The position numbers were made by a program, and so were the translations under genes. Of a stretch of 64,000 bases of DNA, positions 3,394 through 59,910 are shown piece by piece. Position 1 is the stretch's first letter; each line of letters starts with the position of its first letter. The stretch lies in NCBI GenBank assembly GCA_965205335.1, contig OZ242164.1, positions 832,001 through 896,000 on the forward strand. Reading direction: 5' to 3'. The notes under the pieces were generated by a model. That model was not told the origin of the DNA. It did no database searches and saw only the letters and a list, made by a program, of their open reading frames with translations. This stretch comes from Candidatus Woesearchaeota archaeon. Its GTDB lineage: Archaea > Nanobdellota > Nanobdellia > Woesearchaeales > UBA583.

Positions 3394-3422
3394 GGATTAT
3401 ATCTTTAAATTTGCATTTAGTT
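3355..3422. repeat. 68-bp imperfect direct repeat, copy 1 (3' end of HemK-kinase gene plus downstream bases)
   Basis: Aligns without gaps to 5374-5441. Confidence 0.85.
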
Positions 3423-3430
3423 TGAGACAG

Positions 3431-3547
3431 GGCTTTGTACGAAAAGTAACAATTGCTTTAAAAAAGATTAAAACATTATATTATATATTGATAATTTTAA
3501 TTATTTCTAATTTATTATTAATTCTTAATGACTTTTCGTACAAAGCC
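3431..3547. mobile_element. MITE family A, copy 1 (117 bp)
   Basis: 17-bp perfect TIR GGCTTTGTACGAAAAGT; 9-bp TSD TTGAGACAG (3422-3430 and 3548-3556); identical to 5474-5590. Confidence 0.95.
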
Positions 3548-3562
3548 TTGAGACAGAAAAAG

Positions 3563-3570
3563 TTTATAAA
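3563..3570 (+). promoter_or_regulatory. TATA box (TTTATAAA) of the SBP gene, with purine-rich BRE upstream
   Basis: 24 nt upstream of ATG 3595. Confidence 0.7.
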
Positions 3571-3594
3571 AACAAGTACACTTATCACATTACT

Positions 3595-4761
3595 ATGAGA
3601 ATAAATAGAGTCATCATAATATTAATTGTTGGATTGAGTTTGCTCTTCGCTTCTTGTTCCAAGACAACATATACAGAAGTTCCCCAAGAGACTCCTAAAG
3701 TTGTAGAAGAAGAAATATTGGTTGAAGTCCCACTAACAAATGTAGGAGTAATTGCTCCACTTACAGGAAACTCCGCCCTTGATGGACAAGAAACACTAAA
3801 AGTTATACAACTTGCCCAAAGAGTTTTCGGAGAGAAAATAAATCTGATTATAGAAGATGGAAAATGTGAAGGTCCAAAAAGTGAGCAAGCCGCCAACAAA
3901 TTAGTAAATTTAGATGACGTAAAATACATTCTCGGAGGAATTTGTAGTGATGAAACTCTTGCAGCCGCACCTATCGTAGAAGAAGGAAAAGTCATTTTAA
4001 TTTCAAGTGCTTCAACTTCCCCAAAAATTACAAACGCTGGAGAATACATTTTTAGAACAGTCTCATCTGACACTTTCCAAGGAAGAGTTATGGCAGAATT
4101 CTCAAAAAAAATGAGATGGAACAGAATTTTCATCCTATACGAAAATACTAATTACGGACAAGCACTTGCCCAAGTTTTCAAAAATAGTGTTGAAGGGATG
4201 GGAACAGAAGTTACATCCTTTGAAAGTTTCAAAAAAGACGAAACAAATTTCGGGCCAATTATTGAAAAAATCATAAATTCAGAAATTGACGCTCTTTATT
4301 TCGTTCCACAAAATGCCAAAAACGCCCAAACATTTGGAGAACAATTAAGAGAGAAAAATGTAAAGATTCAGATTTTAGCAAGTGAAACATTTGAAAACAA
4401 TGAATTAGCACAAAGTCATGGAGATATCTATGATGGAGCTTTTGTAGCAAGTCCAAAAGTTGATGAAAATTCTCAAAAAGTAAAAGAATTCAAACAGTTA
4501 TGGGAAGAAAATTACGGAGAATTCAAAAATGAAATGGGAACTCTCCTATATTATCTGTCCGCATTTGAAAACTTCAAACTAATTTCCGAAAGCATTGAAA
4601 AGTGTGGAGAAGATACACAATGTGCCAAAGAAAACCTAAACTCCATAGAAAACAGAGAAGGTTACATCGGAACTTACTCAATAGATAAAAACGGAGATGT
4701 CTCAAACACCAAATACAACATCAAACAACTTAAAGAAAACAAATTCCAAATTTACGAATAA
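3595..4761 (+). CDS. Branched-chain amino acid ABC substrate-binding protein (LivJ/LivK-like lipoprotein)
   Basis: Lipobox-like LLFASC; VGVIAPLTG, IIEDGKC, ILGGICS, STSPKITNAGEYIFR motifs. Confidence 0.88.
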   Translation: MRINRVIIILIVGLSLLFASCSKTTYTEVPQETPKVVEEEILVEVPLTNVGVIAPLTGNSALDGQETLKVIQLAQRVFGEKINLIIEDGKCEGPKSEQAANKLVNLDDVKYILGGICSDETLAAAPIVEEGKVILISSASTSPKITNAGEYIFRTVSSDTFQGRVMAEFSKKMRWNRIFILYENTNYGQALAQVFKNSVEGMGTEVTSFESFKKDETNFGPIIEKIINSEIDALYFVPQNAKNAQTFGEQLREKNVKIQILASETFENNELAQSHGDIYDGAFVASPKVDENSQKVKEFKQLWEENYGEFKNEMGTLLYYLSAFENFKLISESIEKCGEDTQCAKENLNSIENREGYIGTYSIDKNGDVSNTKYNIKQLKENKFQIYE

Positions 4762-4978
4762 ACAAATAAATTTTTATTTTTTAATATTTTATGTTAGAAA
4801 ATTACGCATTATATATTATAATAACAATAAATATTTTTCTAATTTTGACAATAGGACAAAACATCACCATCGGAAATTTTGGAAGAGAATTTTCAAAGAA
4901 AATATTGCATAATTACAAACAGCGATGATAAAAAACAAAAAAATTCATTCAAATAAGTTAAAGTGATGCCCACATACA

Positions 4979-5328
4979 ATGGTAAGAATTAATATTATCA
5001 ACCCTGAACTTCTAAGTGATCAGCATCTGATTGATGAGTTTAACGAACTTTTAATGTTTAATCTCATATATCAAAAACTTTATACAAAAGACATCAGCAA
5101 CTTGCAGATGAAATGAAAAAAAGGAAATTTAATCCAACCAAACACAAATTCTGGAGCTTAAATGATTTTCCTATTGAACTTCAAAATGACTGGAAGTCCA
5201 CAAGAGAAGATGAAACTATCATAATTCAGAGAATAATAGAAAAACTTAATGAAAAAAGTGAATGGTATAAATATTATGGGGAGAAGAAAGTAGACAAACT
5301 CCTTATAAAAAAATTAAAAAATTATTAA
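4979..5328 (+). pseudogene. Pyrimidine-dimer DNA glycosylase (T4 endonuclease V-like) pseudogene
   Basis: ATG 4979 reads MVRINIINPELLSDQHLIDEF (compare T4 EndoV MTRINL...LADQHL). The frame then shifts to ...EMKKRKF...NDW...WYKYYG, and the central region is missing. Confidence 0.8.
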
Positions 5329-5373
5329 AATTTCTAAAGATAAACTAAATAATCATAGTAATCAAAACAGAAT

Positions 5374-5441
5374 AATTTCAAGTTTGGAATAGAGGAGGTT
5401 TTGTGTTAATGATAATTATTTCTTTAAATTTATTTTTAGTT
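5374..5441. repeat. 68-bp imperfect direct repeat, copy 2 (diverged duplicate of the kinase gene 3' end)
   Basis: Translates NFKFGIEEVLC* versus NFRFGIEDVLCE* in copy 1. Confidence 0.85.
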
Positions 5442-5473
5442 ATGGGAGTAAATATTTCACATATGAGAGAACA

Positions 5474-5590
5474 GGCTTTGTACGAAAAGTAACAATTGCT
5501 TTAAAAAAGATTAAAACATTATATTATATATTGATAATTTTAATTATTTCTAATTTATTATTAATTCTTAATGACTTTTCGTACAAAGCC
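5474..5590. mobile_element. MITE family A, copy 2 (117 bp)
   Basis: Same sequence as 3431-3547 but with a different 9-bp TSD, GAGAGAACA (5465-5473 and 5591-5599), so an independent insertion. Confidence 0.95.
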
Positions 5591-5760
5591 GAGAGAACAT
5601 AAACTTTTATAAAGTTTGGTTCTAGTGTAAATTCAGTTGGAGATAATTATTAATATTATGTGGGTAGTTTTAAAAAGAATAAAGGTATTAATAAATTATG
5701 AATTGGTTGTATCATAAAAATAAATTAACAAAAAATTTCTATCACAAAACATAAAAAAAG

Positions 5761-7002
5761 ATGTCAGACGAAAAAATACATTACAAAATAAACATTGAAA
5801 GAATAAACTTTCTAATTGACTTCTTTAAAATCACAAAAGAAAAATTCTTAGAATTGACCAATGAAGGATTAAAATCAGATAAAAACAAAATAAAATTTGA
5901 AGACTTTGAAAATAAAATTGAACTATCAAAAATCAAAAGAATAGACAAAATATTCAATAAGGGATTATGCTGGTACATAGACACTGAAAAACCAAACAAA
6001 AAAAATAATTCAAGCATATTCTTTAGAAAAAAAAGTTTCAACTCAAAAATAGGAATTGAAGACATAAAAATAATAGACGAATTTGAAAAAAAAAGAATAC
6101 TAACAAGTATTCTGTGCAATAACATAGACTTTAAACTCCATAGAAAAATCAAAAAATTTGAAGTTAATGATGATGTTAATGAAATTGTAGAAATAGTAAG
6201 ATACAAATTTAAGGAGATTGAAGAAGAACTGATAAAAGAGAAGAAAATAAAAAAAATCCACAACAAAAACACAAAAGAGAATGACAAAAATTACTTAAAG
6301 AACCTATTTAGAATTATTGAAGAATTTAATATATTTGTATTTGAATATTTAGAAAATCACAATAAGAAAGAAAAAGTTAATTTTGAAGGATTTTACATAA
6401 AAAATATCATAGTAGTAAAAAGACAAGAGAATTTAAGAAAAGAGATTTTCACACTGCTTCATGAATTTGCTCATTATCTCCTAGAAGAAGAAGAAATTGA
6501 TGAGAACATAGACAACAACTTAAAGGATATAAAAAATAATAAAGTAGAAAAATGGTGCAATGAATTTGCTTTCAAACTATTATTGGGCGATTACAAAGAG
6601 ACTTTTTATCAAAAACTTCCAAATAAACAAAACAACTTCTGCCAAGAAGAAATCATAAATTTAGTAAAAAAAACATATTTGAACCCAATTTCTTTTTATA
6701 CTAACTTTCTGATAAATAAGAAAATAGATTATAAATATTATACAGACAAAAGAGATGAAATAGACAGAAACTTTAAGAGAAAGATAGAGAGAGAAAAGAA
6801 ACAAAGAAAAGAAGAAAATAAATTGAAAAAATCAAGTGGACAAAAAATTTCTCCTATGATTCCAAAGGAAATAAAATCAGAATTATTTTATGATATTGTG
6901 AAAATAAACTTTGATAGAGGAAAAATTGATGATAGAGATTTCTGTAATTATCTAAACATAAAAAATGAAAAAAGCAGAATGGAGACTTTCTTGTCAAAAT
7001 GA
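5761..7002 (+). CDS. ImmA/IrrE (COG2856-like) metallopeptidase with putative N-terminal HTH
   Basis: FTLLHEFAH (HEXXH) followed by EKWCNEFA. Confidence 0.85.
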   Translation: MSDEKIHYKINIERINFLIDFFKITKEKFLELTNEGLKSDKNKIKFEDFENKIELSKIKRIDKIFNKGLCWYIDTEKPNKKNNSSIFFRKKSFNSKIGIEDIKIIDEFEKKRILTSILCNNIDFKLHRKIKKFEVNDDVNEIVEIVRYKFKEIEEELIKEKKIKKIHNKNTKENDKNYLKNLFRIIEEFNIFVFEYLENHNKKEKVNFEGFYIKNIIVVKRQENLRKEIFTLLHEFAHYLLEEEEIDENIDNNLKDIKNNKVEKWCNEFAFKLLLGDYKETFYQKLPNKQNNFCQEEIINLVKKTYLNPISFYTNFLINKKIDYKYYTDKRDEIDRNFKRKIEREKKQRKEENKLKKSSGQKISPMIPKEIKSELFYDIVKINFDRGKIDDRDFCNYLNIKNEKSRMETFLSK

Positions 7003-7571
7003 AATTTATGATTGACAGAAATTCTTTAATGAACTTAGAGAGATATTATCCATTTGATAAACAACATAATAAAACAGAATACGAAAAATTTAGAACGTTT
7101 TTCAAAAACAAATTCAAAAACAAAGAAATAATTATAATTGACAAAGTTGATAACGAAGGAATAAAGATGATTAAAAAAGAGTTTGAAATAGACAATAGAG
7201 TCATTACAAACACTGAAAATATCTTAGATACTTTAAATGAAATTTCCAATAATGAAAAAAATATAAACATCAATCACAATTTAAATAGTGAAGCAGAAAT
7301 TGAAAGAACAAAAGAAGATGAAAGAGAAAACAAAGTGGATTTAAGTTTAATCGCTTATTGTGTATATTTAAAAAGACAAAAGAAGTTAATTAATGAGGAA
7401 GTTATTCTAATTACAGATGAGACTAAAAATGAGAAATACAATACAAAACTATACAAGAAAATTCCTAATATTTGTAAGAACTATAGTATTGAATGTAAAA
7501 ATCTTCCTTATTTGATATTTGAATTTTTCAGAGATGAAATTCAATTTAAAATAAATCTTAACCAAAAATAA
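6999..7571 (+). CDS. DUF4411-like PIN-domain protein
   Basis: MIDRNSL..RYYPFD, VDLSLIAY, LITDE and KIPNICK motifs; ATGA overlap with the ImmA gene. Confidence 0.75.
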   Translation: MKFMIDRNSLMNLERYYPFDKQHNKTEYEKFRTFFKNKFKNKEIIIIDKVDNEGIKMIKKEFEIDNRVITNTENILDTLNEISNNEKNININHNLNSEAEIERTKEDERENKVDLSLIAYCVYLKRQKKLINEEVILITDETKNEKYNTKLYKKIPNICKNYSIECKNLPYLIFEFFRDEIQFKINLNQK

Positions 7572-7662
7572 AAATGTATGGTATTTTTCGCATTAATCTC
7601 TGTAATTTTTCCATACAATTCACCTAATCATTTTATATAAATTTATAAAGATTTAAATTTTA

Positions 7663-9939
7663 ATGTTCATTATGAAAAAAGCAATACTTAAACCGGACTT
7701 CTCCCCCAGAACTTACCAACAAAGTATTTTTGCTAAATCACTTGATAAAAACTCCTTAGTCGTTTTACCAACAGGACTTGGAAAAACCATAATTGCTTTA
7801 ATGCTTGCAGTTTACTATTACAACAAAACAAACAAAAAAATACTGTTCTTAGCCCCAACCAAACCCCTTGTAGAACAGCAGGAAAAAACATTTAAACAAT
7901 TCATCAAAAACGAAAACGAATTTAAATTCCAAACTCTTGTTGGGACAATCTCTCCTAAAAAAAGAATTAACTTATATGAAAACTCAGACTTTATCTTTTC
8001 AACTCCCCAACTCATTGAAAACGACTTAATCAATGAAATAATCAAACCCTCTGATTTCTGTTACATAATCTTTGATGAAGCCCACAGAGCAATTGGAAGT
8101 TATTCGTATTGTTTTATTGCAGATGACTTTTCTCGAGAATCAAATACAAGATTTTTAGCACTAAGCGCATCCCCGGGGACATCAAAAGATGAAATAAACA
8201 CAATCATTTCAAACCTGAAAATTGAAGAAGTTGTAGTCAAATCATGTGATGACCCTGACGTCTTATCATACGTTAACAAAACCAAAATTGAATACATTGA
8301 AGTTGATATGCCAAAAGCATTTGAAGAAATCAGAGACCTCCTTATGATTTCATACAACAAAAGACTATCAAAACTAAAAGAGATTGGAGTTCTACACAGG
8401 AAAAATTTAAACATAGTTACAAAAACTGATTTACTTAATTTGCAAAATGAACTAAGAGCCCAAATAGGAACAGGAAAGACCTCAAAAAGTGTATGGGATG
8501 CAATCTCAATCTCAGCAGCATTAATGAAACTTGGGCATGGCATTGAACTATTTGAATCAGAAGAAGTAAGCAGTGCTCACACTTATTTCCATAACATATT
8601 AAGACTAAATGGAGATAACTCAAAAGCCGCAAAAGAACTCTCAATTGATGCATCATTTAGACAAGCCTATGAAAAAATAACAAGACTAAAACAAAACTCA
8701 GTTCTACATCCCAAACTAATCAAACTAAAAGAATTAATTAACTCTGAAATCAGAAAGCATAAAGACCTAAAAATCATCATATTCAGCCAATATCGTGACA
8801 CCGTAACTAAAATAGTTTCTGAATTAGAATCAATTCCCAACATTAAACCAAGCATTTTTCTTGGGCAGGCAATGAAAGGAGGAATTAAAATGTCACAAAA
8901 AGAACAAAGAGAAATCTTGGATAGTTTTAGAGAAAGCAAATTTAACATTTTAGTCTCAACAAGCGTTGGAGAAGAAGGACTTGACATTCCAAAAGTAGAT
9001 TTAGTTATTTTCTATGAACCAGTTCCAAGTGCAATCAGAACCATTCAGAGAATTGGACGAACAGGAAGATTTAACGAAGGAAGAGTATACATTTTGCAAA
9101 CGGCAGGAACTCGTGACATAATTACAAGATACATTGCAGGAGCAAAAGAAAAACGAATGTACAAAGTCTTGGACGAAATAAAAAAGGCTATTAATTCTGA
9201 CACATCCGATTCAGGACTTAATAAATTTATCAGAGAAAAAAAATCTTCATTAGAAAATACAAACATAGAAAATTCTAACGATGCATTTGATTCAAGAATT
9301 CCAATCTACATAGACCAAAGAGAAAACACATCATTAATTAAACAATTGCACAAAATTGATGAAATAAAAACAATATCAAAACAACTTGAAGTAGGCGATA
9401 TAATAATTGACGAAAACATTGGAATTGAAAGAAAAGAAAAATCAGACTTTGTTAATTCCATTATAGATAAGAGATTATTTCCCCAGTTAATTAATTTAGT
9501 AAGAAACTATAGAAGACCCATATTAATTTTAGAAGGTTCATCTAACATCTTTTCACTTAGAAACGTAAACCCCAATGTCATAAGAGCCTCAATTTCTGCA
9601 ATCACAGTTGATTTAAGAATTCCAATAATTTACACTGACAACATAGAAGAGACAGCCAATATGATTCTAACAATAGCAAAAAGAACTAAAAGGCCTAAAA
9701 AGGAAGTCTCCTTGGCAGACAGTAAGAAATTCTTTTCTCAAAATGAAGAACTTGAAAAAGTTGTTTCAACAATCCCAAAATTAAATGTCGTAACTGCAAA
9801 AAGTCTTCTTGGAAAATTTAAATCACTAAAAAATTTAGCCAATGCAAGCGAGAAGGACTTACTTGAATGTGAAGGCATTGGAAAAACAAGAGCAAAATTT
9901 ATTTCTGAGTTTTTTAAAAGAAAGTACACTGAGATATAG
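7663..9939 (+). CDS. hef: Hef (FANCM-like) SF2 helicase-ERCC4 nuclease
   Basis: PTGLGKT, DEAH, SVGEEGLDIP and QRIGRTGR; C-terminal ERKxxxD nuclease motif and HhH (GIGKTRA). Confidence 0.95.
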   Translation: MFIMKKAILKPDFSPRTYQQSIFAKSLDKNSLVVLPTGLGKTIIALMLAVYYYNKTNKKILFLAPTKPLVEQQEKTFKQFIKNENEFKFQTLVGTISPKKRINLYENSDFIFSTPQLIENDLINEIIKPSDFCYIIFDEAHRAIGSYSYCFIADDFSRESNTRFLALSASPGTSKDEINTIISNLKIEEVVVKSCDDPDVLSYVNKTKIEYIEVDMPKAFEEIRDLLMISYNKRLSKLKEIGVLHRKNLNIVTKTDLLNLQNELRAQIGTGKTSKSVWDAISISAALMKLGHGIELFESEEVSSAHTYFHNILRLNGDNSKAAKELSIDASFRQAYEKITRLKQNSVLHPKLIKLKELINSEIRKHKDLKIIIFSQYRDTVTKIVSELESIPNIKPSIFLGQAMKGGIKMSQKEQREILDSFRESKFNILVSTSVGEEGLDIPKVDLVIFYEPVPSAIRTIQRIGRTGRFNEGRVYILQTAGTRDIITRYIAGAKEKRMYKVLDEIKKAINSDTSDSGLNKFIREKKSSLENTNIENSNDAFDSRIPIYIDQRENTSLIKQLHKIDEIKTISKQLEVGDIIIDENIGIERKEKSDFVNSIIDKRLFPQLINLVRNYRRPILILEGSSNIFSLRNVNPNVIRASISAITVDLRIPIIYTDNIEETANMILTIAKRTKRPKKEVSLADSKKFFSQNEELEKVVSTIPKLNVVTAKSLLGKFKSLKNLANASEKDLLECEGIGKTRAKFISEFFKRKYTEI

Positions 9940-9962
9940 TATATTGTATGTATCTCATGCTT

Positions 9963-16482: not shown

Positions 16483-16502
16483 TATTTGGATTATCTGTGA
16501 AT

Positions 16503-17444
16503 TGTGTAGTGCAGTGACATATGTCACCACCTCAACTTTCTCTGAAAGTTGTCAAACTCATAAGAAGGAGTTTGACCAAATAAGCCCTCATGAGGCCTAA
16601 AAGCATTGTATCTATATCTAAATAACTCTAAATCATTGTTGCAATACTTAATTTCTCTGTCAATTGTTCCAAACAAACGTTCCACTTTTCCATTTGTTTG
16701 AGGACGGTTAACTCTAGTTCTAATGTGCTTAATCCCTCTTCTTTGACGCCATTTATCAAACTTAGACTTCTTACTTGTGAGTCCATATGGTGCTCCATTG
16801 TCACTGATTATTTGATTAGGATTTCCAAATTTCTTGATTAAATTATCAAGAAACTGTGTTACAATTGGCGTTGTAACAGTTGGAACGTGTAAAATACCTA
16901 AACAATAACGAATGGCATCATCAATGACTGCAATTATTTTACCTTTTTCCCCAAATTCACTGTCATCAATATGCCAAAGTGAATTTGAGTGTTTACGTTC
17001 GAAACGAACGTATTTAACCTGAGACCCTCTATTTCCTTCTTTACGAGTTAAATTATTCTCTCTAAGAACTTTATTAATGGTTCTCTCTGAAATATCCAGA
17101 TTAGGTAGGATTTTATGAAGCTTTTTAGATCCCCAACCAGTTTTATATCGAAGATTTAAAATTGCTTTCTCATCTTCTAAAGTAACTTTGTAATAGATCT
17201 TGTTTGGTCTTGTAGACTTATCTTGATAATCCCATATTTCTTTATCAAAACGTTGTTGCCAACGTTTTAAAGTACGAATACTTACAAAGTATTTGCACTT
17301 CTCAGCAAGTATTTTCTTGCATTTAGAATAAGAGTTTTGTTTAACTCTTAGTTTTATGAAAACTTTCCTAATTTCGTATTTTTTCATAAAATTAACAAGA
17401 ATTGTTAATTTTTAGACTGGTGACATATGTCACTGCACTACACA
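16503..17444 (-). mobile_element. IS481-family insertion sequence, intact (942 bp)
   Basis: 27-bp perfect TIR TGTGTAGTGCAGTGACATATGTCACCA; 14-bp TSD GATTATCTGTGAAT (16489-16502 and 17445-17458); TGT...ACA ends. Confidence 0.93.
16524..17387 (-). CDS. IS481-family DDE transposase (rve integrase core)
   Basis: LWHID, IISDNG, PQTNGKVER and YN..RPH motifs. Confidence 0.93.
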   Translation of the reverse strand: MKKYEIRKVFIKLRVKQNSYSKCKKILAEKCKYFVSIRTLKRWQQRFDKEIWDYQDKSTRPNKIYYKVTLEDEKAILNLRYKTGWGSKKLHKILPNLDISERTINKVLRENNLTRKEGNRGSQVKYVRFERKHSNSLWHIDDSEFGEKGKIIAVIDDAIRYCLGILHVPTVTTPIVTQFLDNLIKKFGNPNQIISDNGAPYGLTSKKSKFDKWRQRRGIKHIRTRVNRPQTNGKVERLFGTIDREIKYCNNDLELFRYRYNAFRPHEGLFGQTPSYEFDNFQRKLRW

Positions 17445-17502
17445 GATTATCTGTGAATAATACAGACAAATAAAACCTTAAAACAACATTTCAAAACCAA
17501 AC

Positions 17503-32957: not shown

Positions 32958-34439
32958 CTATCCCTTAATCACTTCAAAAGAATGGAAATATCTTCTAATC
33001 TTCCCGTGGATTTTAGCTTCAATTTCCAAATCAGGAATCTTAATATCTCCTAAAATACCTTTCTTATTCACAAGTGCAAACCCAATAATTCTTGAATCAT
33101 TCTTTTCAAACCTCTTAAAATTCCAGACTAATTTGAACTGATTTCTCCCCTTCATAACATGATTTGGTTCAGTTAATAAAAAAGAATTATCCCTAATCTG
33201 AAGATACCCAGGCATTCTAAAAATAATCTTCAACAAATCAATCTCGGATTCCTTTATATTTTCAAACCCAATTTTAACCTTCATACTTTTAACACCCTCA
33301 TGCTCAACTTTCTCAACTTCATAAATATCAGTTTCAACATCTAAAGGATTTGATGATTTTCTAATATACCAATAAGTTGCAACACATAAAACAATTAAAA
33401 CCAAAAGATAAAGTGTCAGATAATTAACTGAATAAGTTATAGATTTAGTCTCCCCTTTTTCCAGAGGAATGTTAAATTTTATTCCCTTGTCTGTTTTTTC
33501 ATAATTATCCGAACCTGATGATGAAAATAAGAATCTTTCAAAAAACCCAAGTTTTACATCCCTAACATAAGTATCAAAAACATTACCATTATTTGTTACA
33601 GTAATCATAACCTCATCTTCAAGAAAATTTGATTTAGGTTCAACAACTTCATTTATTTGCCTAATTTCTACAACATTTATTAAACTATTCGCAAACCATT
33701 CTTGAGCAGTGTTTGTATTATTCTCTGTGTGTCTAATAATAACTCTCGCCTCGTACTCCTTTGGATCAATCTTAGGAGATATTTCTGCCTGATAAACTTT
33801 ATAATTTAAAGATTTTGAAAAAGTATCATCAAAGTTCGCAATCTCATGTTCACCTAATTCTACTCTTACATTAACTGAAATTTCCTCTCCCATATTTTTT
33901 ACTTCAATAGTATAATCCAAAGGAGATGCAGGGGACACATCACTTACTGCAAATCTTGGATTAAAAATTATTGGAACAGAATTAGGTTTCTCGATTTTAA
34001 CACGGAACTTCACTAAAACTTCTTCATTTTTTCCTACTACCTTAATAGGAAGATCAAATTCCCCATTATACTCATTATCCTGAGAAATAATTATCTCCTC
34101 AGGGGAAATAACATCAGTACTGTAATCAAACTCTGAATTAGCACTATAACTAAAAGTAATCAGCTTTTTTTTGTTAATTCCTAAATTGAATGTTTTATAA
34201 TTTACTTCAGTATCCCATCCTTTCTGATCAAAAATTACAACTTCAAAGTTCTGAGAAGAATCCAAATTATTATTAACTTCAAGTGCGAATTCTCCATTAA
34301 TATCATCATTAAATACAATACTTTCCTGAGTTTCAATTACTACAGAAAAATCTCCATTTTCATTCAAAGTTATAGCAAAAGCACTACAAATGCCAAATAA
34401 AATCACAAAAAATGTAATAATAAAGGATTTAAAAATCAT
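32958..34439 (-). CDS. Hypothetical surface/S-layer-associated Ig-like protein with signal peptide and internal TM
   Basis: Signal MIFKSFII...SAFA; TM near aa 340; start set to 34439, behind a GA-rich SD. Confidence 0.7.
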   Translation of the reverse strand: MIFKSFIITFFVILFGICSAFAITLNENGDFSVVIETQESIVFNDDINGEFALEVNNNLDSSQNFEVVIFDQKGWDTEVNYKTFNLGINKKKLITFSYSANSEFDYSTDVISPEEIIISQDNEYNGEFDLPIKVVGKNEEVLVKFRVKIEKPNSVPIIFNPRFAVSDVSPASPLDYTIEVKNMGEEISVNVRVELGEHEIANFDDTFSKSLNYKVYQAEISPKIDPKEYEARVIIRHTENNTNTAQEWFANSLINVVEIRQINEVVEPKSNFLEDEVMITVTNNGNVFDTYVRDVKLGFFERFLFSSSGSDNYEKTDKGIKFNIPLEKGETKSITYSVNYLTLYLLVLIVLCVATYWYIRKSSNPLDVETDIYEVEKVEHEGVKSMKVKIGFENIKESEIDLLKIIFRMPGYLQIRDNSFLLTEPNHVMKGRNQFKLVWNFKRFEKNDSRIIGFALVNKKGILGDIKIPDLEIEAKIHGKIRRYFHSFEVIKG

Positions 34440-35382
34440 TTTCTCCCCCTTCCTCTTCTTTTGATTTAGCTTTAATTTTTTTAATCTCATCTTCTAAATT
34501 TAATTTAGAAATTATTTCTTTATATCTGTTTCGTATAGTAACCTCCGTAACTCCTGAAACATCTGAAATATCTCTTTGGGTTTTCCTCTCTCCTTCAAGT
34601 AAGCCTGCGATGTATAAAGCCGCTGCTGCAATTCCTATAGGACCACGGCCAGAAGTTAATTCAAGAGATAAAGCCTTTGATAGAATCTCAACAGCTCTTG
34701 ACTGGGTTCCAGCCCCATAATTTAGAACAGATGCAAATCTTGATATGTAATCTACCGGATTTGAAGGCAAAATCTTAATTCTAAGTTCTCTTGTAATATA
34801 ACGATAAGACCTTCCGATTTCTTTTTTATCAATTCCGGATGCTTCCGCGATCTCATCTAATGTTCTGGGGATATTTTGTCTTCTGCATGCTGCATATACC
34901 ACACCTGCTACAACAGATTCAATACTTCTCCCCCTAACTAAGTTTTTCTGAACAGCTTCAGTATACACCTTTCCTGCTTCCTCTTCAATTGAGGATGGTA
35001 GATTCAGAAAAGATGATAACCTCCTAAGTTCTCCTAATGCAATTTTAAGATTCTTTTCCATAACTGTTGAAAGTCTCTTCTGCCACCTCTTTAATCTCTG
35101 AAGCTTATATCTTTGTTTCTTATCCAGAGAAAAAGCATCTGATTCAGAACCAATTGCAGTTCCCATACCCAAATCAAACTTAGTATATGATGTAGGTGCA
35201 CCAGACCTTCTCATCTCGGAATCATCACTTTCTTCAAAATCCCTCCATTCCTTTCCAAGCGAAATATTCTTTCCATCAATTAGAAGCCCACAACTTCTGC
35301 ATATTATTTCTCCCTTATCCTTGTTGTTGTAAAGATTAGAACTTGCACACTCAGGACATTTTTTAATATTATCTCCACTCAT
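34429..35382 (-). CDS. tfb: Transcription initiation factor IIB
   Basis: CPEC/CRSC zinc ribbon, EWR.F, RGRSIES, PRTLDEIA and GVTEVTIRNRYKE. Confidence 0.97.
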   Translation of the reverse strand: MSGDNIKKCPECASSNLYNNKDKGEIICRSCGLLIDGKNISLGKEWRDFEESDDSEMRRSGAPTSYTKFDLGMGTAIGSESDAFSLDKKQRYKLQRLKRWQKRLSTVMEKNLKIALGELRRLSSFLNLPSSIEEEAGKVYTEAVQKNLVRGRSIESVVAGVVYAACRRQNIPRTLDEIAEASGIDKKEIGRSYRYITRELRIKILPSNPVDYISRFASVLNYGAGTQSRAVEILSKALSLELTSGRGPIGIAAAALYIAGLLEGERKTQRDISDVSGVTEVTIRNRYKEIISKLNLEDEIKKIKAKSKEEEGGENDF

Positions 35383-54633: not shown

Positions 54634-54640
54634 TTGTCCT

Positions 54641-54703
54641 CTAAACTTCGGAATTGTTCCCCTCTTTCATTTTATCTTCCTTTTCAATCTCCCCAATTAT
54701 CAT
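54641..54703 (-). CDS. Putative leaderless 20-aa uORF upstream of the NFACT gene
   Basis: MIIGEIEKEDKMKEGNNSEV*; TTTATATA (54725-54732, minus strand) lies 21 nt upstream. Confidence 0.35.
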   Translation of the reverse strand: MIIGEIEKEDKMKEGNNSEV

Positions 54704-54797
54704 AACTTAGCCACAGTTTAACCTTATATAAAAGTTTGTTTTAAGAACAAAAAAATCAAATGTTAATATTTATAAATTCCCCATTCCAGATAAAAAT

Positions 54798-56048
54798 ATG
54801 AAAGATTTTGAAATACTCAAAGGAACAAAGGATTCCTCATTTAGTGAACAGATTAAAATCAACGAGATATTACAGACAATAAGAACCAATTTTGAAAAAT
54901 ATGGATTTAGACCCTTTGATACTCCAAGCATTGAATATATGGATACTCTAATGAATAAATACAAAGAAGACGATGAAATTGTTCAGGAGATATTTAAAGT
55001 AAAAGATAGAGGAGATAGGGATTTAGGTTTAAGATATGATTTAACTGTTCCTCTATGCCGTTATATTGCATCTTCAAAACAGCCCAAACTTCCATTTAAA
55101 AGATATGCAATTGGAAATGTGTTTCGAGATGGTCCTATTAAATCAGGTAGATTAAGAGAATTTACCCAGTGCGATGCAGATATTATAGGTATAAAGGATA
55201 TTTGCGCAGAAGCTGAAACTCTTAAAATGTTTTATGATACATATAAAGAAATTGGAATTGATGCAGTAATTGAACTAAACAATAATAAAATCTTAAGAGG
55301 GGCTTTATTACAGGAGGGATTTAAAGAAGAGGAATTGCAGGGATTAATCTTAAGCATTGACAAATTGAAAAAAATAGGCGAAAGAGGAATTCTTGATGAA
55401 ATCAAACAAAGAAATTTAGATGAGAACAAAGTTAAATCAGCCATTTTCACCCTATCATTAAAAACATTTGAAGAACTTGACAAGAAAGCATCCAATAACG
55501 AACTAAATGAAGGAATATCCCAATTAAAAGAACTAGTTAAATATCTTGATAATTTGAAAGTTAAATACAGACTTAATTTCTCAATGTCAAGAGGGCTTGC
55601 AATTTATACTGGTAATATTTGGGAAGCATACGACACTAAAAAAAGAATTGAATCTTCAATTGGTTCTGGTGGGAGATATGATAAGATAATTGGGGATTAT
55701 ATACAAGATGGGCGGGAGTATTCTGCATTTGGAGTTTCATTTGGTTTGGCTCCTATTCTAAAATGCATTAAATCAGAAGACAATAAAATTAGTAATACAG
55801 AGATTTTAGTTGCTCCGTTAAATTCAAATGAAAAATTGATAAACACTGCATTAAACTTAGCTCAAAATCTAAGAGGAAAGGGTAAAAACACAGAAATATG
55901 TTATGATTTCAAGTTAAAAAAAGCATTTGATTATGCGGATTACATAGGAGCAAAAGAGCTTGCAATAATTGGCAGAAAGGACTTAGAGAAAGAAGTTTAC
56001 ACATTAAAAAATCTTAGTACAAAAGAAGAAAAAGAAGTTAAATTATAA
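54798..56048 (+). CDS. hisS: Histidine-tRNA ligase
   Basis: KGTKD, LRYDLTVP, FRD....GRLREFTQCD, RGL..YTG and GGRYD. Confidence 0.96.
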   Translation: MKDFEILKGTKDSSFSEQIKINEILQTIRTNFEKYGFRPFDTPSIEYMDTLMNKYKEDDEIVQEIFKVKDRGDRDLGLRYDLTVPLCRYIASSKQPKLPFKRYAIGNVFRDGPIKSGRLREFTQCDADIIGIKDICAEAETLKMFYDTYKEIGIDAVIELNNNKILRGALLQEGFKEEELQGLILSIDKLKKIGERGILDEIKQRNLDENKVKSAIFTLSLKTFEELDKKASNNELNEGISQLKELVKYLDNLKVKYRLNFSMSRGLAIYTGNIWEAYDTKKRIESSIGSGGRYDKIIGDYIQDGREYSAFGVSFGLAPILKCIKSEDNKISNTEILVAPLNSNEKLINTALNLAQNLRGKGKNTEICYDFKLKKAFDYADYIGAKELAIIGRKDLEKEVYTLKNLSTKEEKEVKL

Positions 56049-56159
56049 TCATTATTTTCTAAAGTTAATTGTGTTTTTCTTGGCTTTAGATGTTCATTTT
56101 CGTCCGATTAATTTATAAATAAGAAAGCATTTACTTAGAATAGTAACAAGTAGATACTA

Positions 56160-58475
56160 TTGAAAGTGACAAATCAAGACAATTCTAGAGAAGAAGGACA
56201 AGAGAATTTAGAAGAGAAAATAGGGCTCTTTGGTAAATTCAGAGGACGAGGGAAGAAGAAAAAAGCAATAGTTGATGTGAGTTTTATGTCTTTACCAGGT
56301 CATAAAATTAATCTCAATGAAGGAGGAGGTGTTGATATTAATTCTGAAGAAGGTAAGGGTGTATCTTTGAAAATTCACAAAGAGAGGGGAAAGACTAGTA
56401 TTAATCCTACAGATGATCCGAACATTGCACATGTAAATTCTGATAGAGAGACTATTTTTGAGTCTTCTTTCCCTGGCATGGATGTTTTTGTTGGTAAAGG
56501 AGGGAATCGTTTTAAACCTATTGATGATAGAAATATTTCTTTTAACCTATTAGACAGGATGTTTTTGAATTTTGGTGGTAATATGAAAAATTATTTTCTT
56601 GCTAGACCTACATCCAGAAAAGGTATAAATTATATCATTAATGGTGTGATTGGGGTGGTTGAAGCTATCATTCCAAGAGGTGGAGGATTGCTTACTAAGT
56701 ATGGTGAGAAGGATACTAAATTAGTTCCTGTCTCCGAGTCAGGTACATCTGTTGAAGTAGGTAAGGAAGTTAAGGTGGTTGTTCCAAAAGATAGAGGATT
56801 GCTTACTAAGTATAGTGAGAAGGATACTAAATTAGTTCCTGTCTCCGAGCCAGGTACATCTGTTGAAGTAGGTAGGAAAGTTAAGGTGGTTACTCCAAAA
56901 AGAAAAAATTTATCTGCGAAATTTGGAGGAGATGGTACTGATACAATAAGTCCCACAGATAATTCTGTTCCAGTTGTTAATGCAGGTAGAGAATTTGAAG
57001 CTAGAACTTTAGAGGAGGAGATATTATCAGTGGAACTTGGCAGGAATTGGGCTATATTTAGACCTAAAGGCAAAGGGGATGATAACCCATCTGTAACTTT
57101 GCATGATAAGATAGAAGTTACGCCTCTGAAAAGTAGAGGTATAATTTGGAATGTGATAAAGAAAGGAAGATCAGCGGTGGTGACCGCTGAACCTATAAAA
57201 AAGGGAGGAAAATTTCTTAGAATGCCCAATGGAATACTTAATCTTAATAATTTTAAATATAAGTTGAGTGATGGGGGAATATTTGATTTTAATAAAGAAA
57301 AATGGAAGAAAAGATGGGTTAAAGGACTTTCTTTGATGGTATTAGGTAGCGCATTAGCAGGCGGAGTATTAAAATATCAATACCTAATGAATAATAATGA
57401 AGGGAGTTCTCCACAACAACCTCGTTCCAAGCGATTTGATAGTATACCAGAATTAGTAGAGGCAAATGGTATTTATATTTATCATAAGGGTGCTTTTGAT
57501 AGATGGACAGATGTCTGGTATGATATTAATACATCGCAAGGATTGTGTGAAAAAGATACTTATGTAACAGATAGAGTAAAAAGCAGACATCTTCTAGTAA
57601 GACTTGATGGGCGTGTCCCAAGGATTGTAAATACAAATGGGAACAATCAGAAAGAGAAAAAAAACCGAGGAAGAATGGTAGTTTCTCGTGAGATTCTAAT
57701 GAATTATGATTTGAGAATAGGTCATGGAGGAGATTTTGTTCTCCCTATAAGAAAAGGTGAACAAGGATATCCTTTTGCATTATATTGTAATGGAAGTAAA
57801 ATGGGAAAAGCAGTTGAGAGGTATCTTTCAGGAACGATACCACCTAATCAATGGTGGAAGGGGGCAGGATTGAAGAACAAGGAACTTAAATATGGTTCAG
57901 CATTTGAAGGAATTTTTAAAGATTTTAAAGATAATGAGGGAAATCCTACACTGCCCCAAGAACTTACACACTTACTTAAAGCACAAGCACTTGTTGAGAG
58001 TAGATTTATACCAGAGTCTATATCTCCTTCTGGTGCGAGGGGAATTCTGCAATTATTAAGAGGTACTCTTAGTCATTATGGTGTCAAGAGAGAGAATGAT
58101 TTTAAAATCCCTTATCAAATCAGATGTGCTTATGCACACTATGAAGATAAAATTAAGGAATTCAAACGATCATTGGGAGATATAAGAGCATCTGATGAAG
58201 ACAAAGCAAAACTTGCACTTTATTTAGCGATGCAGGCATATCATAGTGGGGAAGGTAATGTAAGTGGGATATTAAAAAAACCAGAATCAAAAGGAATCTT
58301 AGAAAAACTATTATCTGAAAACAGAAGTCCTCAAGAAGTAGTGCATGGATTGATAATATCAAATTATGGATTTGGAAAAATTTCTAATCGCAAAATAGGA
58401 GAAGAGTCCATAAATTACTTACCAAAGATCTTTGCCGCAGAAAGATTTCTATCAGAGAATGAATTGAGAAAGTAG
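56160..58475 (+). CDS. Membrane-anchored lytic transglycosylase (SLT/GH23-like) with long N-terminal repeat region
   Basis: ALVESRF (catalytic Glu), SGARGILQL, AYHSGEGNV and ESINYLPKI; TM at about aa 390-405. Confidence 0.85.
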   Translation: MKVTNQDNSREEGQENLEEKIGLFGKFRGRGKKKKAIVDVSFMSLPGHKINLNEGGGVDINSEEGKGVSLKIHKERGKTSINPTDDPNIAHVNSDRETIFESSFPGMDVFVGKGGNRFKPIDDRNISFNLLDRMFLNFGGNMKNYFLARPTSRKGINYIINGVIGVVEAIIPRGGGLLTKYGEKDTKLVPVSESGTSVEVGKEVKVVVPKDRGLLTKYSEKDTKLVPVSEPGTSVEVGRKVKVVTPKRKNLSAKFGGDGTDTISPTDNSVPVVNAGREFEARTLEEEILSVELGRNWAIFRPKGKGDDNPSVTLHDKIEVTPLKSRGIIWNVIKKGRSAVVTAEPIKKGGKFLRMPNGILNLNNFKYKLSDGGIFDFNKEKWKKRWVKGLSLMVLGSALAGGVLKYQYLMNNNEGSSPQQPRSKRFDSIPELVEANGIYIYHKGAFDRWTDVWYDINTSQGLCEKDTYVTDRVKSRHLLVRLDGRVPRIVNTNGNNQKEKKNRGRMVVSREILMNYDLRIGHGGDFVLPIRKGEQGYPFALYCNGSKMGKAVERYLSGTIPPNQWWKGAGLKNKELKYGSAFEGIFKDFKDNEGNPTLPQELTHLLKAQALVESRFIPESISPSGARGILQLLRGTLSHYGVKRENDFKIPYQIRCAYAHYEDKIKEFKRSLGDIRASDEDKAKLALYLAMQAYHSGEGNVSGILKKPESKGILEKLLSENRSPQEVVHGLIISNYGFGKISNRKIGEESINYLPKIFAAERFLSENELRK
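56683..56900. repeat. 111-bp (37-aa) tandem repeat in the SLT1 N-terminal region
   Basis: GLLTKY(G/S)EKDTKLVPVSE(S/P)GTSVEVG.. twice; gaggatt at 56683 and 56794. Confidence 0.93.
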
Positions 58476-58484
58476 TTAATAAAA

Positions 58485-59747
58485 ATGGATAATAAAAACC
58501 TTTACAGTAAAATAAAAAAATATGGAGCTTCGGCAGGACTGCTGTTTGGGCTCTTTTTAGGAGGTTGTGATTACAATTTTCATGATAAAAATAACTCTTC
58601 AGATGCTCAAACTAATAAAGTTACAAAAACCCTTCCTTTAGAGTATTCCAAAAGACATCCATCAATACAAGCCTTAATTAAAGATAGAGGTGTTGAATAC
58701 TACCCTCCTAGTTCTTTTCAAACATGGACTCATTCATTAGTTGATATTTGTACAGGCACAGGTATTTGCTCAAAAGACGAATATAAGAGGCAAAGGTACA
58801 GACGAGTTTTTATAAGACTTGATGGAAAACTTGCAGGAACTGTAAATAGTAATACATTACCAGCAAGTATTAGAGGAGGTCAGCCCAGACGATTTAATGA
58901 AACAGAATGGAAACAAGTTGACGTGAGAATTAAAAGTGGACATGATTATGTTATTCCTTTTAATCAAGGTGATAAAGGATATCCATTTGGATTTAAATGT
59001 AATGGAAACATATTAAGAATCGGAATTGAGAGATACCTAAGGGGAGATATTAGAGGAGAGTATGGAGAATATGGGGAATATAATGTAGATTTTTACGAAG
59101 CATCATGGGGTGTTTATGTTGAAAATGGATTTCGGAAAAGAGGGATATTGCCAGAAGAGATATTTTATATAGTTAATGGTATGGCAAATGTTGAGAGTAA
59201 TTTCCTAAGAAGTGCAGAAAATAGTTCAACGGGTGCAAGGGGAATACTTCAACAGATGCCCAAAACTCTTCAAGATTGTGGAGTTCCTCAAAGTATGCAT
59301 AAAGATAGACTTGCTCAACTTGATTGTGCTTATAGATATTTTGAAGATAGATTTTCTCATTATGAACCACTAATAAATAATATAAAGATTAGTTCAGAAC
59401 AAAGAAATGAATTCTTGCTTTATCTGGCTGTTCAGGCTTATCATACAGGACAAGGTAATATAGAAAAAATATTAAAAGACCCAGAATCAATTAAAATTGC
59501 AAATAGATTTGTAGAAGAAGGAAGAGACCCTATTGAAATAGTACATGGGTTAACGATATTAAATTATGGACTTGGAAATAATGGGACTAAGGTAGGATTA
59601 GTATCTAGTTCTTATCTTCCCAAAGTAATAGCATCAGTTAGAATCTTAGAAGAAGTTAGACGAAAAAGAAGAAAAGAAGGGAATAGGATTAAAGGATATT
59701 CACTCCCTCCTCTACTCTTTCCTGAAGAAGAGGAAGGTAATAAATAA
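58485..59747 (+). CDS. Lytic transglycosylase (SLT/GH23-like), putative lipoprotein; paralog of 56160
   Basis: LFLGGC lipobox-like; ANVESNF, TGARGILQQMP, AYHTGQGNI and SYLPKV. Confidence 0.87.
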   Translation: MDNKNLYSKIKKYGASAGLLFGLFLGGCDYNFHDKNNSSDAQTNKVTKTLPLEYSKRHPSIQALIKDRGVEYYPPSSFQTWTHSLVDICTGTGICSKDEYKRQRYRRVFIRLDGKLAGTVNSNTLPASIRGGQPRRFNETEWKQVDVRIKSGHDYVIPFNQGDKGYPFGFKCNGNILRIGIERYLRGDIRGEYGEYGEYNVDFYEASWGVYVENGFRKRGILPEEIFYIVNGMANVESNFLRSAENSSTGARGILQQMPKTLQDCGVPQSMHKDRLAQLDCAYRYFEDRFSHYEPLINNIKISSEQRNEFLLYLAVQAYHTGQGNIEKILKDPESIKIANRFVEEGRDPIEIVHGLTILNYGLGNNGTKVGLVSSSYLPKVIASVRILEEVRRKRRKEGNRIKGYSLPPLLFPEEEEGNK

Positions 59748-59760
59748 TCATAACTAACCC

Positions 59761-59888
59761 GGCTCTGTCCGGAAATTGCTTTTTCCAAAATCTATGCTAA
59801 CTATATTCAATCAAAGAAAAAAATTATTCGTCAAAAGTTGCTTTATTGATACAATATTTTAAGTTCTCTTGAATTTCCGGACAGAGCC
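59761..59888. mobile_element. MITE family B (128 bp)
   Basis: 17-bp perfect TIR GGCTCTGTCCGGAAATT; 8-bp TSD ACTAACCC (59753-59760 and 59889-59896). Confidence 0.92.
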
Positions 59889-59902
59889 ACTAACCCAAAA
59901 CT

Positions 59903-59910
59903 TTTATATA
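59903..59910 (+). promoter_or_regulatory. TATA box (TTTATATA) of aIF2-gamma
   Basis: 21 nt upstream of ATG 59932. Confidence 0.7.

Follow-up and report, generated by a model that had tools for sequence, protein, structure and literature searches.

Transposable elements with two unrelated types of transposase insert at a precise register upstream of TATA boxes in the 1.2-Mb genome of a Candidatus Woesearchaeota archaeon. The insertions keep an exact distance to the box, lie on one side of it, use either element orientation, hit the same bonds repeatedly and are spread phylum-wide. There is an even chance that the landmark is the TBP-TFB complex on BRE/TATA, which would be abutted or touched by the transpososome. 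The fuller reading, that the TBP-TFB-promoter complex serves as docking site and molecular ruler for two unrelated lineages of DDE transposases in DPANN-type archaea, is plausible and falls just short of an even chance.

Insertions in the Window

The window is the whole stretch of 64,000 nucleotides that was analyzed. Its relevant features are as follows (TSD, target-site duplication).

3431..3547, + strand: MITE-A1, 117 bp, ends GGCTTTGTACGAAAAGT, non-autonomous derivative of IS-A (IS5 family)
3422-3430 and 3548-3556, + strand: 9-bp TSD of MITE-A1, TTGAGACAG, read directly
3557-3562 and 3563-3570, + strand: promoter side of MITE-A1, where the TSD is followed by the spacer AAAAAG (3557-3562) and the TATA box TTTATAAA (3563-3570), read directly
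3595..4761, + strand: substrate-binding protein gene (Peripla_BP_6), ATG 24 nt past the box of the MITE-A1 site
5474..5590, + strand: MITE-A2, 117 bp, identical to MITE-A1
5465-5473 and 5591-5599, + strand: TSD of MITE-A2, GAGAGAACA, read directly
5606-5613, + strand: box TTTATAAA on the promoter side of MITE-A2, after the TSD and the spacer TAAACT, read directly
16503..17444, - strand: IS481-like insertion sequence, 942 bp, ends TGTGTAGTGCAGTGAC, transposase ORF 16524-17387
16489-16502 and 17445-17458: 14-bp TSD of the IS481-like copy, GATTATCTGTGAAT, read directly
16502-16475, - strand: promoter side of the IS481-like copy, with TSD (16502-16489), spacer CAAATA (16488-16483) and box TTTATATA (16482-16475), read directly
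34429..35382, - strand: the single TFB gene of the genome, 317 aa, candidate host landmark protein
59761..59888, + strand: MITE-B, 128 bp, ends GGCTCTGTCCGGAAATT, derivative of the 1030-bp IS-B (IS5 family)
59753-59760 and 59889-59896, + strand: 8-bp TSD of MITE-B, ACTAACCC, read directly
59903-59910, + strand: box TTTATATA on the promoter side of MITE-B, after the TSD and the spacer AAAACT, read directly
59932..61146, + strand: aIF2-gamma gene (GTP_EFTU + eIF2_C), ATG 21 nt past the box of the MITE-B site
61167..62041, + strand: IS481-like copy with an internal deletion, lacking both a TSD and a box at 20 bp

An earlier note on this DNA had described four sites at which a TSD is followed by 6 bp and a TATA box, and each was confirmed base for base. 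A blind scan for inverted repeats of at least 12 bp flanked by direct repeats of at least 4 bp returns exactly these four elements and two trivial hits. The deleted IS481-like copy at 61167-62041 is a fifth element, outside these four. Four other full copies of MITE-A in the genome match MITE-A1 at 100% identity. The IS481-like transposase has 287 aa and an rve integrase core, and the box next to its element (16482-16475, - strand) drives a 131-aa ORF (16446-16051) whose ATG lies 28 nt past the box. Box-to-ATG distances peak genome-wide at 21-25 nt, against 24, 21, and 28 nt at the MITE-A1, MITE-B, and IS481-like sites. The MITE-A2 site does not fit; as the earlier note had stated, its box lacks a start codon at leaderless distance. 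The nearest long ORF after it begins at 5761, 147 bp downstream.

Orthologous aIF2-gamma promoters of seven sister species have the box and lack the MITE. The TBP gene is single in the genome and located outside the window. Rfam gave no family at threshold over the window, and a search for related loci in the genome contigs gave three relatives only. Three sequencing runs of one sample contain the region, with no RNA run among those listed. In their contigs, which break at repeats, no joint skipped a MITE or the IS, and empty-site variants were not seen.

Element Families

The transposases of IS-A and IS-B belong to the IS5 family, with a DDE_Tnp_1 domain above cut-off (PF01609, E 8.9e-22 for IS-B and 1.9e-24 for IS-A). 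Their best NCBIfam model, NF033579 (IS5_2), scores 109 and 132 bits, below the 140-bit cut-off, and they are thus divergent members; in tblastn, the matches include plasmid genes with an IS5-family annotation, at 27-30% identity. Residues D115, D188, and E245 are invariant across 62 homologues and probably form the catalytic triad. The IS5-family elements have 17-bp ends, and perfect duplications of 8 bp (B) or 9 bp (A) flank 34 of them. Their MITEs are short, non-coding and multicopy, generate target duplications and have ends in common with IS-A (1664 bp) and IS-B (1030 bp). MITE-A (117 bp) is present in 6 full copies and MITE-B (128 bp) in 36. Transcription of the transposase gene by divergent activity of the target box was considered and rejected, the 5' end of the gene pointing toward the box in three full IS-B copies and away from it in two.

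Members of the IS481 family have TGT...ACA ends and duplications of 4-15 bp. Their transposases combine an rve integrase core with an N-terminal HTH; the second enzyme studied here matches PF00665 (1.2e-10) and PF13683 above cut-offs and HTH_32 below cut-off. By far its best NCBIfam model is NF033577, at 182 bits; this is below the 224-bit cut-off, and the name is therefore written IS481-like. The ends are TGTG...CACA, and a single 16-bp duplication is just beyond the family range.

The two enzymes are unrelated (PF01609 vs PF00665; no BLASTP similarity, E 1.3 or worse), and both are small (287 and 304 aa), with no spare or extra domain evident. A structural model of the IS-B transposase from 62 sequences (pLDDT 81.6) runs from a helical N-terminal region through a DDE core to a long C-terminal helix; an earlier model from 7 sequences was unusable (pLDDT 41.6). 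A Foldseek search of the PDB with the IS-B model returned only the generic DDE/RNase H fold (piggyBac, Mos1, ISCth4, and HIV integrase; TM 0.25-0.39) and nothing bearing on targeting. Complex prediction for TBP, TFB core and IS-B transposase, with a 7-row alignment, scored 0.20 against a mark of 0.32, which speaks neither for nor against a complex.

Register of Insertion

Among 51 paired IS5-family elements of the genome (MITE-A, MITE-B, and their autonomous parents), 45 have a box matching at least 7 of 8 bases at exactly TSD+6, where 1.6% per element is expected by chance (P 8e-75). Of the six exceptions, stacking, mixed ends or a 1-bp shift account for four. When only elements with a perfect TSD are taken, a box of at least 6 of 8 bases is present in 32 of 34. 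The perfect palindrome is strongly preferred as box (31 of the 51 paired elements), and variants such as TTTATTAA and TTTAAAAA are also accepted.

The same register emerges from a TATA-blind census seeded with terminal repeats, in which random intergenic positions give 0.003 per offset. Ends of MITE-B and IS-B lie exactly 14 bp from WTTATAWA in 40 of 105 cases (binomial P 1.6e-72), and these 40 are drawn from only 48 ends with a box within 60 bp. Ends of MITE-A and IS-A lie exactly 15 bp from the motif in 8 of 22 cases (binomial P 2e-15). For the C-type elements, a box stands 14 bp from 6 of 24 ends.

For the IS481-like elements the constant is the distance from end to box, which is exactly 20 bp for 12 of 41 ends (null 1.1%, P 1.4e-14). 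Exact TSDs among 15 end pairs examined were 15 bp (four copies), 14 bp (the window copy), and 16 bp (one copy). With a 20-bp end-to-box distance and mostly 15-bp TSDs, the usual IS481-like offset is thus 5 bp, and 6 bp is peculiar to the window copy. The trait is lineage-specific. It is absent from a 984-bp IS481-like subgroup of the same genome, in which 0 of 5 seed-scan ends have a box at 20 bp (four copies inspected by eye are 20, 22, or 23 bp from a box, or have none near). It is also absent from the IS481-like copies with detectable ends in the sister genome G007 (35-37% identity), none of which has a box at 20 bp and two of which have one at 30-31 bp. A 69% identical copy in the genome of another relative has a weak box 5 bp from a 15-bp TSD. 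A search of 301 genomes of the order for IS481-like ends combined with a box returned this genome alone, so there is no cross-genome replication for this family.

The IS5-type pattern, TTTATAAA-gap-GGCTCTGTCC, is present in 43 of 401 genomes of the phylum (42 besides this one), and a reversed control gave 0 matches. Among the matches listed outside this genome the gap is 14 or 15 in 68 of 81 (hand tally; 27 values allowed), and it is 14 or 15 in 43 of 118 metagenome matches. GC-richer relatives show the identical peak, and IS5 sublineages with the register diverge down to 23% identity.

The genome-wide offset check thus bears out the claim of the earlier note that insertion occurs at a fixed register upstream of TATA. 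The common 6-bp offset proposed there holds for the IS5-family elements and fails for most IS481-like copies, with their 15-bp TSD and 5-bp spacer. More than one transposase family is indeed involved: the IS481-like element is unrelated to IS5, and MITE-A and MITE-B both derive from IS5-family elements with related ends.

Properties of the Target

Insertions occur on the upstream (BRE) side of the box in 36 cases and on the gene side in none, and promoters are left intact, as previously claimed. Either end of MITE-B may face the box (19 vs 14). The far flank showed no symmetric signal and no mirrored half-site. Of 48 target sites 47 are unique, and spacers and TSDs vary from site to site. The register does not depend on age, being found in 9 of 10, 14 of 16, and 10 of 10 MITE-B copies by identity class, the first class being 98-100% identical. 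Sites are also reused: the 8-mer GTGTTCAA occurs four times around three stacked elements (664537-665624), and nine junctions have exactly one TSD length between two elements.

Free promoters have a purine-rich BRE directly upstream of the box, with A at -4 (0.64) and A or C at -7. Targeted sites give the same BRE/TATA logo as free promoters in a sharper form (A at -3: 0.97 vs 0.82), with no extra element-specific bases. Promoters of protein genes are hit, and at least one tRNA promoter. Intergenic TTTATAAA occurs 311 times in the genome. By a crude ORF caller, 18 of the 48 occupied boxes are without a suitably placed ORF, and occupancy is 18 of 134 for such boxes and 30 of 177 for promoter-like ones. 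Boxes lacking an ORF are thus occupied about as often, and sequence may suffice without an active promoter; no tRNA genes were found downstream of the 18 occupied ORF-less boxes.

Possible Landmark and Alternatives

In the favored explanation, the elements themselves choose the target: IS5-family transposases move IS-A, IS-B, C-type elements and the derived MITEs, and one IS481-like transposase lineage targets likewise for its own copies. The promoter-side staggered cut falls 6 bp (for IS481-like elements mostly 5 bp) upstream of TATA, at the upstream edge of BRE, and the distal cut lies another 8, 9, or 14-15 bp away. Duplication of the segment between the cuts lets the promoter keep its native sequence to -14, -15, or -20 and stay functional, and the site upstream of BRE is a safe harbor in an 85%-coding genome. 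The TBP-TFB landmark would then be the archaeal counterpart of TFIIIB, on which Ty3 integrase docks. Several points count against this landmark: the transposases are small, with no spare domain evident, the near-edge offset differs between the superfamilies (6 vs mostly 5 bp), ORF-less TTTATAAA boxes are occupied about as often as promoter-like ones, and prokaryotic target specificity is usually read directly from DNA.

Such direct reading, in which the transposases recognize, by sequence or shape, the BRE/TATA DNA on one side of the target (an A-rich stretch from -6 to -3 together with TTTATAAA) and need no host protein, is a serious possibility that falls somewhat short of probable, and it fits the sequence data about as well as the TBP-TFB landmark. 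Both superfamilies would have evolved the recognition independently because the site is a safe harbor. The near-equal occupancy of ORF-less boxes (18/134 vs 30/177), the preference for the perfect palindrome (31/51), the lack of an extra domain in either transposase and the element-specific nature of the trait (0/5 in the 984-bp subgroup, none at 20 bp in G007) speak for it. Nevertheless, one motif would have to be read at a near-equal distance by both unrelated enzymes and by IS5 sublineages with as little as 23% identity. Moreover, symmetric DDE transpososomes do not usually have a one-sided motif 6-14 bp outside the duplication, no mirrored half-site is seen, and the target logo has no feature that free promoters lack.

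Many transposases prefer bent target DNA, and a bend or distortion made by TBP-TFB could attract any DDE transposase with the element unadapted, which would explain a landmark common to two unrelated superfamilies. The absence of the trait from the 984-bp subgroup (0/5 ends at 20 bp) and from the G007 copies (none at 20 bp, two at 30-31 bp) argues against a passive bend usable by any transposase, and no such bias was found reported for archaeal IS in the literature searched; this explanation is improbable. Random insertion followed by purifying selection, leaving the promoter-sparing copies in a compact, 85%-coding genome, also predicts the lack of gene-side insertions (0 vs 36). Positions 7-40 bp upstream should, however, be at least equally harmless, yet 40 of 48 near-box ends are at exactly 14 bp; copies of 98-100% identity already show the pattern (9/10), stacks reuse the same 8 bp, and the peak recurs in GC-richer relatives. 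Selection is thus already contradicted by the offset distribution and very improbable, in line with the earlier argument that it cannot alone give a single exact offset; the peak being too sharp for it, targeting is element-encoded. An artefact, i.e., a box that is part of the element, or copies that are segmental duplications and not independent events, is suggested by the similar left flanks of MITE-A1 and MITE-A2. It can practically be dismissed, being already contradicted by the varying spacers and TSDs, the 47 unique sites of 48, the position of the box outside the TSD and on either element side, and the MITE-free aIF2-gamma promoters with a box in seven sister species.

Implications

No published precedent in Archaea was found in a literature search, and this would be the first case found there of transposition aimed at a basal promoter register. 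Its carriers are abundant, barely annotated IS/MITE families of uncultivated small-genome archaea. The piling up of elements in stacks just outside BRE explains why about 12% repeated DNA is tolerated in a 1.2-Mb genome of which 85% is coding. The targeting is convergent with that of eukaryotic safe-haven retroelements. In metagenome-assembled genomes, the ends of the elements pinpoint promoters with single-base accuracy. If the TBP-TFB landmark is correct, tethering to an initiation complex, as of Ty3 on TFIIIB, would also exist in prokaryotes, on machinery of the archaeal ancestor type, and the positions of MITEs would provide a natural map, accurate to the base, of where TBP-TFB sits in organisms that cannot be grown. 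Whether a prokaryotic transposase can take the archaeal pre-initiation complex as its landmark can be tested simply in this system, and the enzymes are candidate tools for inserting cargo immediately upstream of archaeal promoters, which would remain unbroken.

Comparison with Known Systems

TFB is the archaeal relative of Brf1 and TFIIB. Fixed distance and one-sidedness, as in integration tethered to an initiation complex, are both found for the elements described here. In yeast, Ty3 integrates at RNA polymerase III genes under the guidance of TFIIIB (TBP, Brf1, and Bdp1); its intasome contacts TBP within TFIIIB, and the site is thereby precisely set, a constant few bp from the TBP-containing initiation complex (PMC8632968). 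Further likenesses are the harmless site in a gene-dense genome and the rve-type integrase core of the IS481-like transposase. As an LTR retrotransposon, however, Ty3 inserts downstream of the box, where transcription starts, whereas DNA transposons and MITEs land here upstream of BRE. Ty3 uses an integrase chromodomain; no docking domain is evident here.

Dictyostelium TRE5-A and DGLT-A and yeast Ty1 insert upstream of tRNA genes and illustrate unrelated elements of compact genomes converging on a transcription-linked landmark (PMC6101501). These are eukaryotic retroelements with windows of tens of bp that target polymerase III genes only, whereas here a single bond is used, at protein-gene promoters and at least one tRNA promoter.

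Tn7 inserts through TnsD at attTn7, on one side of and at a fixed distance from a protein-bound site, leaving the adjacent gene unharmed, and the elements here resemble it in sidedness, fixed distance and harmlessness. Tn7 relies on a dedicated DNA-binding protein that the element encodes, and it enters a single site per genome in one orientation. The elements here have hundreds of potential sites, insert either way round and show no separate targeting protein. The bacterial IS903 makes a 9-bp duplication, has ends beginning GGCTTTGT and shows a symmetric flanking preference, and IS5 uses specific sites upstream of glpFK and flhDC. Both are like the present elements in Pfam transposase family, 8-9 bp duplication and terminal sequence. 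Their preferences are symmetric or confined to local hot spots, whereas the archaeal elements keep a one-sided register relative to a basal promoter element.

Insertions in the window

The four insertions described in the earlier note were confirmed by direct reading of the sequence, and a blind scan of the window for inverted repeats with flanking direct repeats returned the same four elements and otherwise nothing substantial. A fifth element is a deleted copy.

3431-3547: MITE-A1, 117 bp, 9-bp duplication
5474-5590: MITE-A2, 117 bp, identical to MITE-A1, 9-bp duplication
16503-17444: IS481-like IS, 942 bp, 14-bp duplication
59761-59888: MITE-B, 8-bp duplication
61167-62041: deleted IS481-like copy, without duplication and without TATA box

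At all four intact sites six bases separate the target-site duplication (TSD) from a TATA box, TTTATAAA or TTTATATA. The start codon lies 24 nt past the box for the substrate-binding protein gene at MITE-A1, 21 nt for aIF2-gamma at MITE-B, and 28 nt for a 131-aa ORF at the IS481-like element. The reservation made earlier about the box beyond MITE-A2 holds: no start codon is found nearby, and the next long ORF begins 147 bp downstream. In seven sister species the aIF2-gamma promoter lacks a MITE, and its box is retained at 21-24 nt from the ATG.

The left flanks of MITE-A1 and MITE-A2 (window 3330-3420 and 5370-5460) are roughly three-quarters alike by eye, and the MITEs are identical; apparently the 3' end of the methyltransferase gene region was duplicated first and was then hit by two independent insertions. 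At window 3431, contigs from the source-sample run X1 end in a MITE-A flank foreign to the copies of this genome, with TTTATAAA nearby, and these loose ends may come from a co-occurring strain with further insertions.

The genome and its elements

The genome is a single contig (G000:C1) of 1,199,749 bp with 30.9% G+C, in which a simple ORF caller found 1090 ORFs (85% coding). In most genes having a WTTATAWA box, its end is 21-25 nt from the ATG, thus transcripts are largely leaderless. Clustered giant ORFs rich in repeats (762 to 5178 aa; G000:C1:280000-403000) contain much of the non-IS repeated DNA. MITE fragments, occupied boxes that lack an ORF, and small repeat families are unusually frequent in the region G000:C1:12000-185000, which may be a variable island.

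MITE-B has its ends in common with a 1030-bp IS (IS-B; 8-bp duplication, 304-aa transposase), present as three intact and identical copies, one at 89% and several decayed. The ends of MITE-A are those of a 1664-bp IS (IS-A; 9-bp duplication) encoding a 282-aa DDE ORF and a separate 104-aa SWIM zinc-finger ORF, the two overlapping by 4 nt; one end of IS-A (L002, G000:C1:589112-590775) carries three subterminal TGTACGAAAAGT copies. Both transposases contain PF01609, have NCBIfam IS5 as best model with a score under its cut-off, and are 27-30% identical to plasmid genes that bear an IS5-family annotation. For the IS-B transposase, 268 homologues were found (E <=1e-10); nearly all are unnamed, and the sole informative name is 'transposase [Nanoarchaeota archaeon]'. 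A third end group (GGTTCTGTTAA...; C-type) has a box at 14 bp in 6/24 ends, and some of its ends flank a MORN-repeat ORF. Such ORFs (196-274 aa) lie without transposase between IS5-like ends of GGTTCTGTTCAATTTGAGAGGG type at G000:C1:664673-665488 (L004) and 1194783-1195789 (L003); these are passenger-carrying, non-autonomous elements.

Position of IS5-type insertions

Element ends were located by terminal-repeat sequence alone, blind to the flanks. The genome-wide distribution of offsets, which the earlier note had proposed to set against intergenic controls, is not flat and peaks sharply: the first WTTATAWA stands at exactly 14 bp (8 + 6) from 40 of the 105 MITE-B/IS-B ends, with one or two at each other offset. 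No box occurs within 60 bp at 57/105 ends, as expected if it stands on only one side of each element. MITE-A/IS-A ends have the box at exactly 15 bp (9 + 6) in 8/22. With random intergenic positions giving 0.003 per offset, P is 1.6e-72 and 2e-15, respectively. Full-length IS copies keep the same register as the MITEs derived from them.

Among 51 paired elements, 45 have a box of at least 7/8 bases 6 bp past the TSD on one side (null 1.6%), and it is perfect in 31 (null 0.33%). Of the six exceptions, one is at offset 5, one is a mixed-end copy whose other side fits 8 + 6, two lie on the outside of stacks, and the remaining two (502957 and 1035357) are genuine. Where the duplication is perfect (34 elements), 32 have a box matching 6/8 bases or more. 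Target sites are unique in 47/48 and hence independent.

For TTTATAAA boxes flanked by a gene on a single side only, the element stands upstream 36 times and never on the gene side; one of the 33 strict-box elements at the register also has a possible ORF reading towards it. Either MITE-B end may face the box (19 vs 14), and the box is found with copies of every identity class (9/10 at 98-100%, 14/16 at 92-98%, 10/10 at 80-92%). At nine junctions across the genome, two element ends are spaced by exactly one duplication length (8-15 bp); in one of these, a MITE-B lies within the duplication of an IS481-like copy and adjoins the same box. In the stack at 664537-665624 a C-type element stands between two MITE-B copies; four copies of GTGTTCAA lie between and around the three elements, with the box 6 bp past the first. 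This order is exactly what three successive insertions at the same bonds produce.

In three MITE-B copies (G000:C1:47345-47472, 147223-147350, 460577-460703) the flanks do not match, and each side has a TATA box at 14 bp. A likely cause is either a deletion or inversion through recombination of two copies that sat at separate promoters, or insertion between divergent promoters that lie close together.

The IS481-like lineage

The enzyme of the window IS (287 aa, rve-type) has IS481 as best model, under that model's cut-off, and is not similar to the IS-B enzyme (E 1.3 at best); the IS5-type (PF01609) and rve-type elements are thus unrelated, in line with the different families named earlier. 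In the main IS481-like subgroups a box of at least 7/8 bases stands at exactly 20 bp in 12/41 ends, with no more than two at any other offset (null 1.1%, P 1.4e-14). Four copies have an exact duplication of 15 bp, the window copy has one of 14 bp, and a single boxless copy has one of 16 bp. The family constant is therefore the 20 bp from IS end to box, and the common 6-bp offset, valid for IS5-type elements and the window copy, gives way to a usual IS481-like spacer of 5 bp. A 984-bp subgroup with different ends had no box at 20 bp in the 5 ends found by the scan; by eye, its four copies lie 20, 22 or 23 bp from a box, or near none. Replication of the IS481-like trait was sought in other genomes and not achieved.

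The target site

In free promoters (n=245) the profile is BRE-like: A predominates at -3 (0.82) and -4 (0.64), and position -7 is A or C, seldom T. At targeted sites this profile recurs in sharper form (A at -3, 0.97), with no additional signal and no mirrored signal on the far flank. This profile places the cuts between -7/-6 and between -15/-14 (or -16/-15, or -21/-20). A promoter that has been hit keeps its own sequence as far as the far cut, so that, judged by retained native sequence, promoters would be left intact as the earlier note proposed.

By a crude definition of 'promoter-like', 30/177 such intergenic TTTATAAA boxes and 18/134 others are occupied. Seventeen of these 18 were read by eye, and A at -3 was found in 17/17 on the element side and 7/17 on the opposite side; no tRNA genes lie downstream of the 18. 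A tRNA-Gly gene (G000:C1:386015-386276) does have a 135-bp MITE-A-type element upstream, its end separated from the box by 9 bp + 6-7 bp; tRNA promoters are thus also hit.

Other genomes and metagenomes

The sister species G007 has an IS whose terminal 10 bases are identical and whose 9-bp duplication is followed, after 6 bp, by TTTATAAA. G032, from another family of the order, has an element whose ends differ and whose transposase aligns at 23% identity; here TTTTTAAA stands 6 bp past a 9-bp duplication. A search for TTTATAAA followed after 4-30 free bases by GGCTCTGTCC matched 12/151 genomes of the order and 43/401 of the phylum (35/281 genera), and a backward-read control gave zero matches in the same genomes. 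Among the 81 matches listed outside this genome, of which seven are from other orders of the class, the gap by hand count is 15 in 52, 14 in 16, 16 in 4 and other in 9. At the fetched loci the MITEs are 162-298 bp long and most have 9-bp duplications, and 12 of the 23 matches examined have an ATG 21-23 nt past the box, pointing away. Among 118 matches listed from public metagenomes of all kinds, gap 15 occurs 26 times, gap 14 17 times and each other gap at most 8 times; A at -3 is present in 39/43 with gaps 14/15 and in 29/73 with gaps other than 14, 15 and 16.

Basis of the targeting

Searches of full-text literature (main texts outside subscription journals) found no description of archaeal elements inserting at a BRE/TATA register. 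A Woesearchaea genome is among the archaea richest in MITEs according to PMC11602168, in which the word TATA is absent, and PMC6640164 deals with Pyrococcus IS numbers and antisense transcripts, targets not being its topic.

Selection alone, as the earlier note argued, cannot give one exact offset: positions farther upstream are as harmless but empty, and young identical copies and stacks are already in register. Nor can a passive hot spot account for the pattern, since the register is ignored by other IS481-like elements, here and in G007. It follows that targeting is a trait of particular transposase lineages. These transposases may read the target DNA directly, which is somewhat less probable than not; the occupation of boxes without genes and the small size of the enzymes speak in its favor. 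The preferred landmark, with about an even chance of being right, would be the TBP-TFB complex at the promoter. It is favored over direct reading because the landmark is one-sided though the transpososome is presumably symmetric, because the information content of the target is that of the promoter and no more, because box variants are tolerated, and because the landmark is common to two unrelated enzymes, one of which, the IS481-like enzyme, belongs to the same integrase superfamily as that of Ty3, whose pairing with TFIIIB provides the precedent (PMC8632968).
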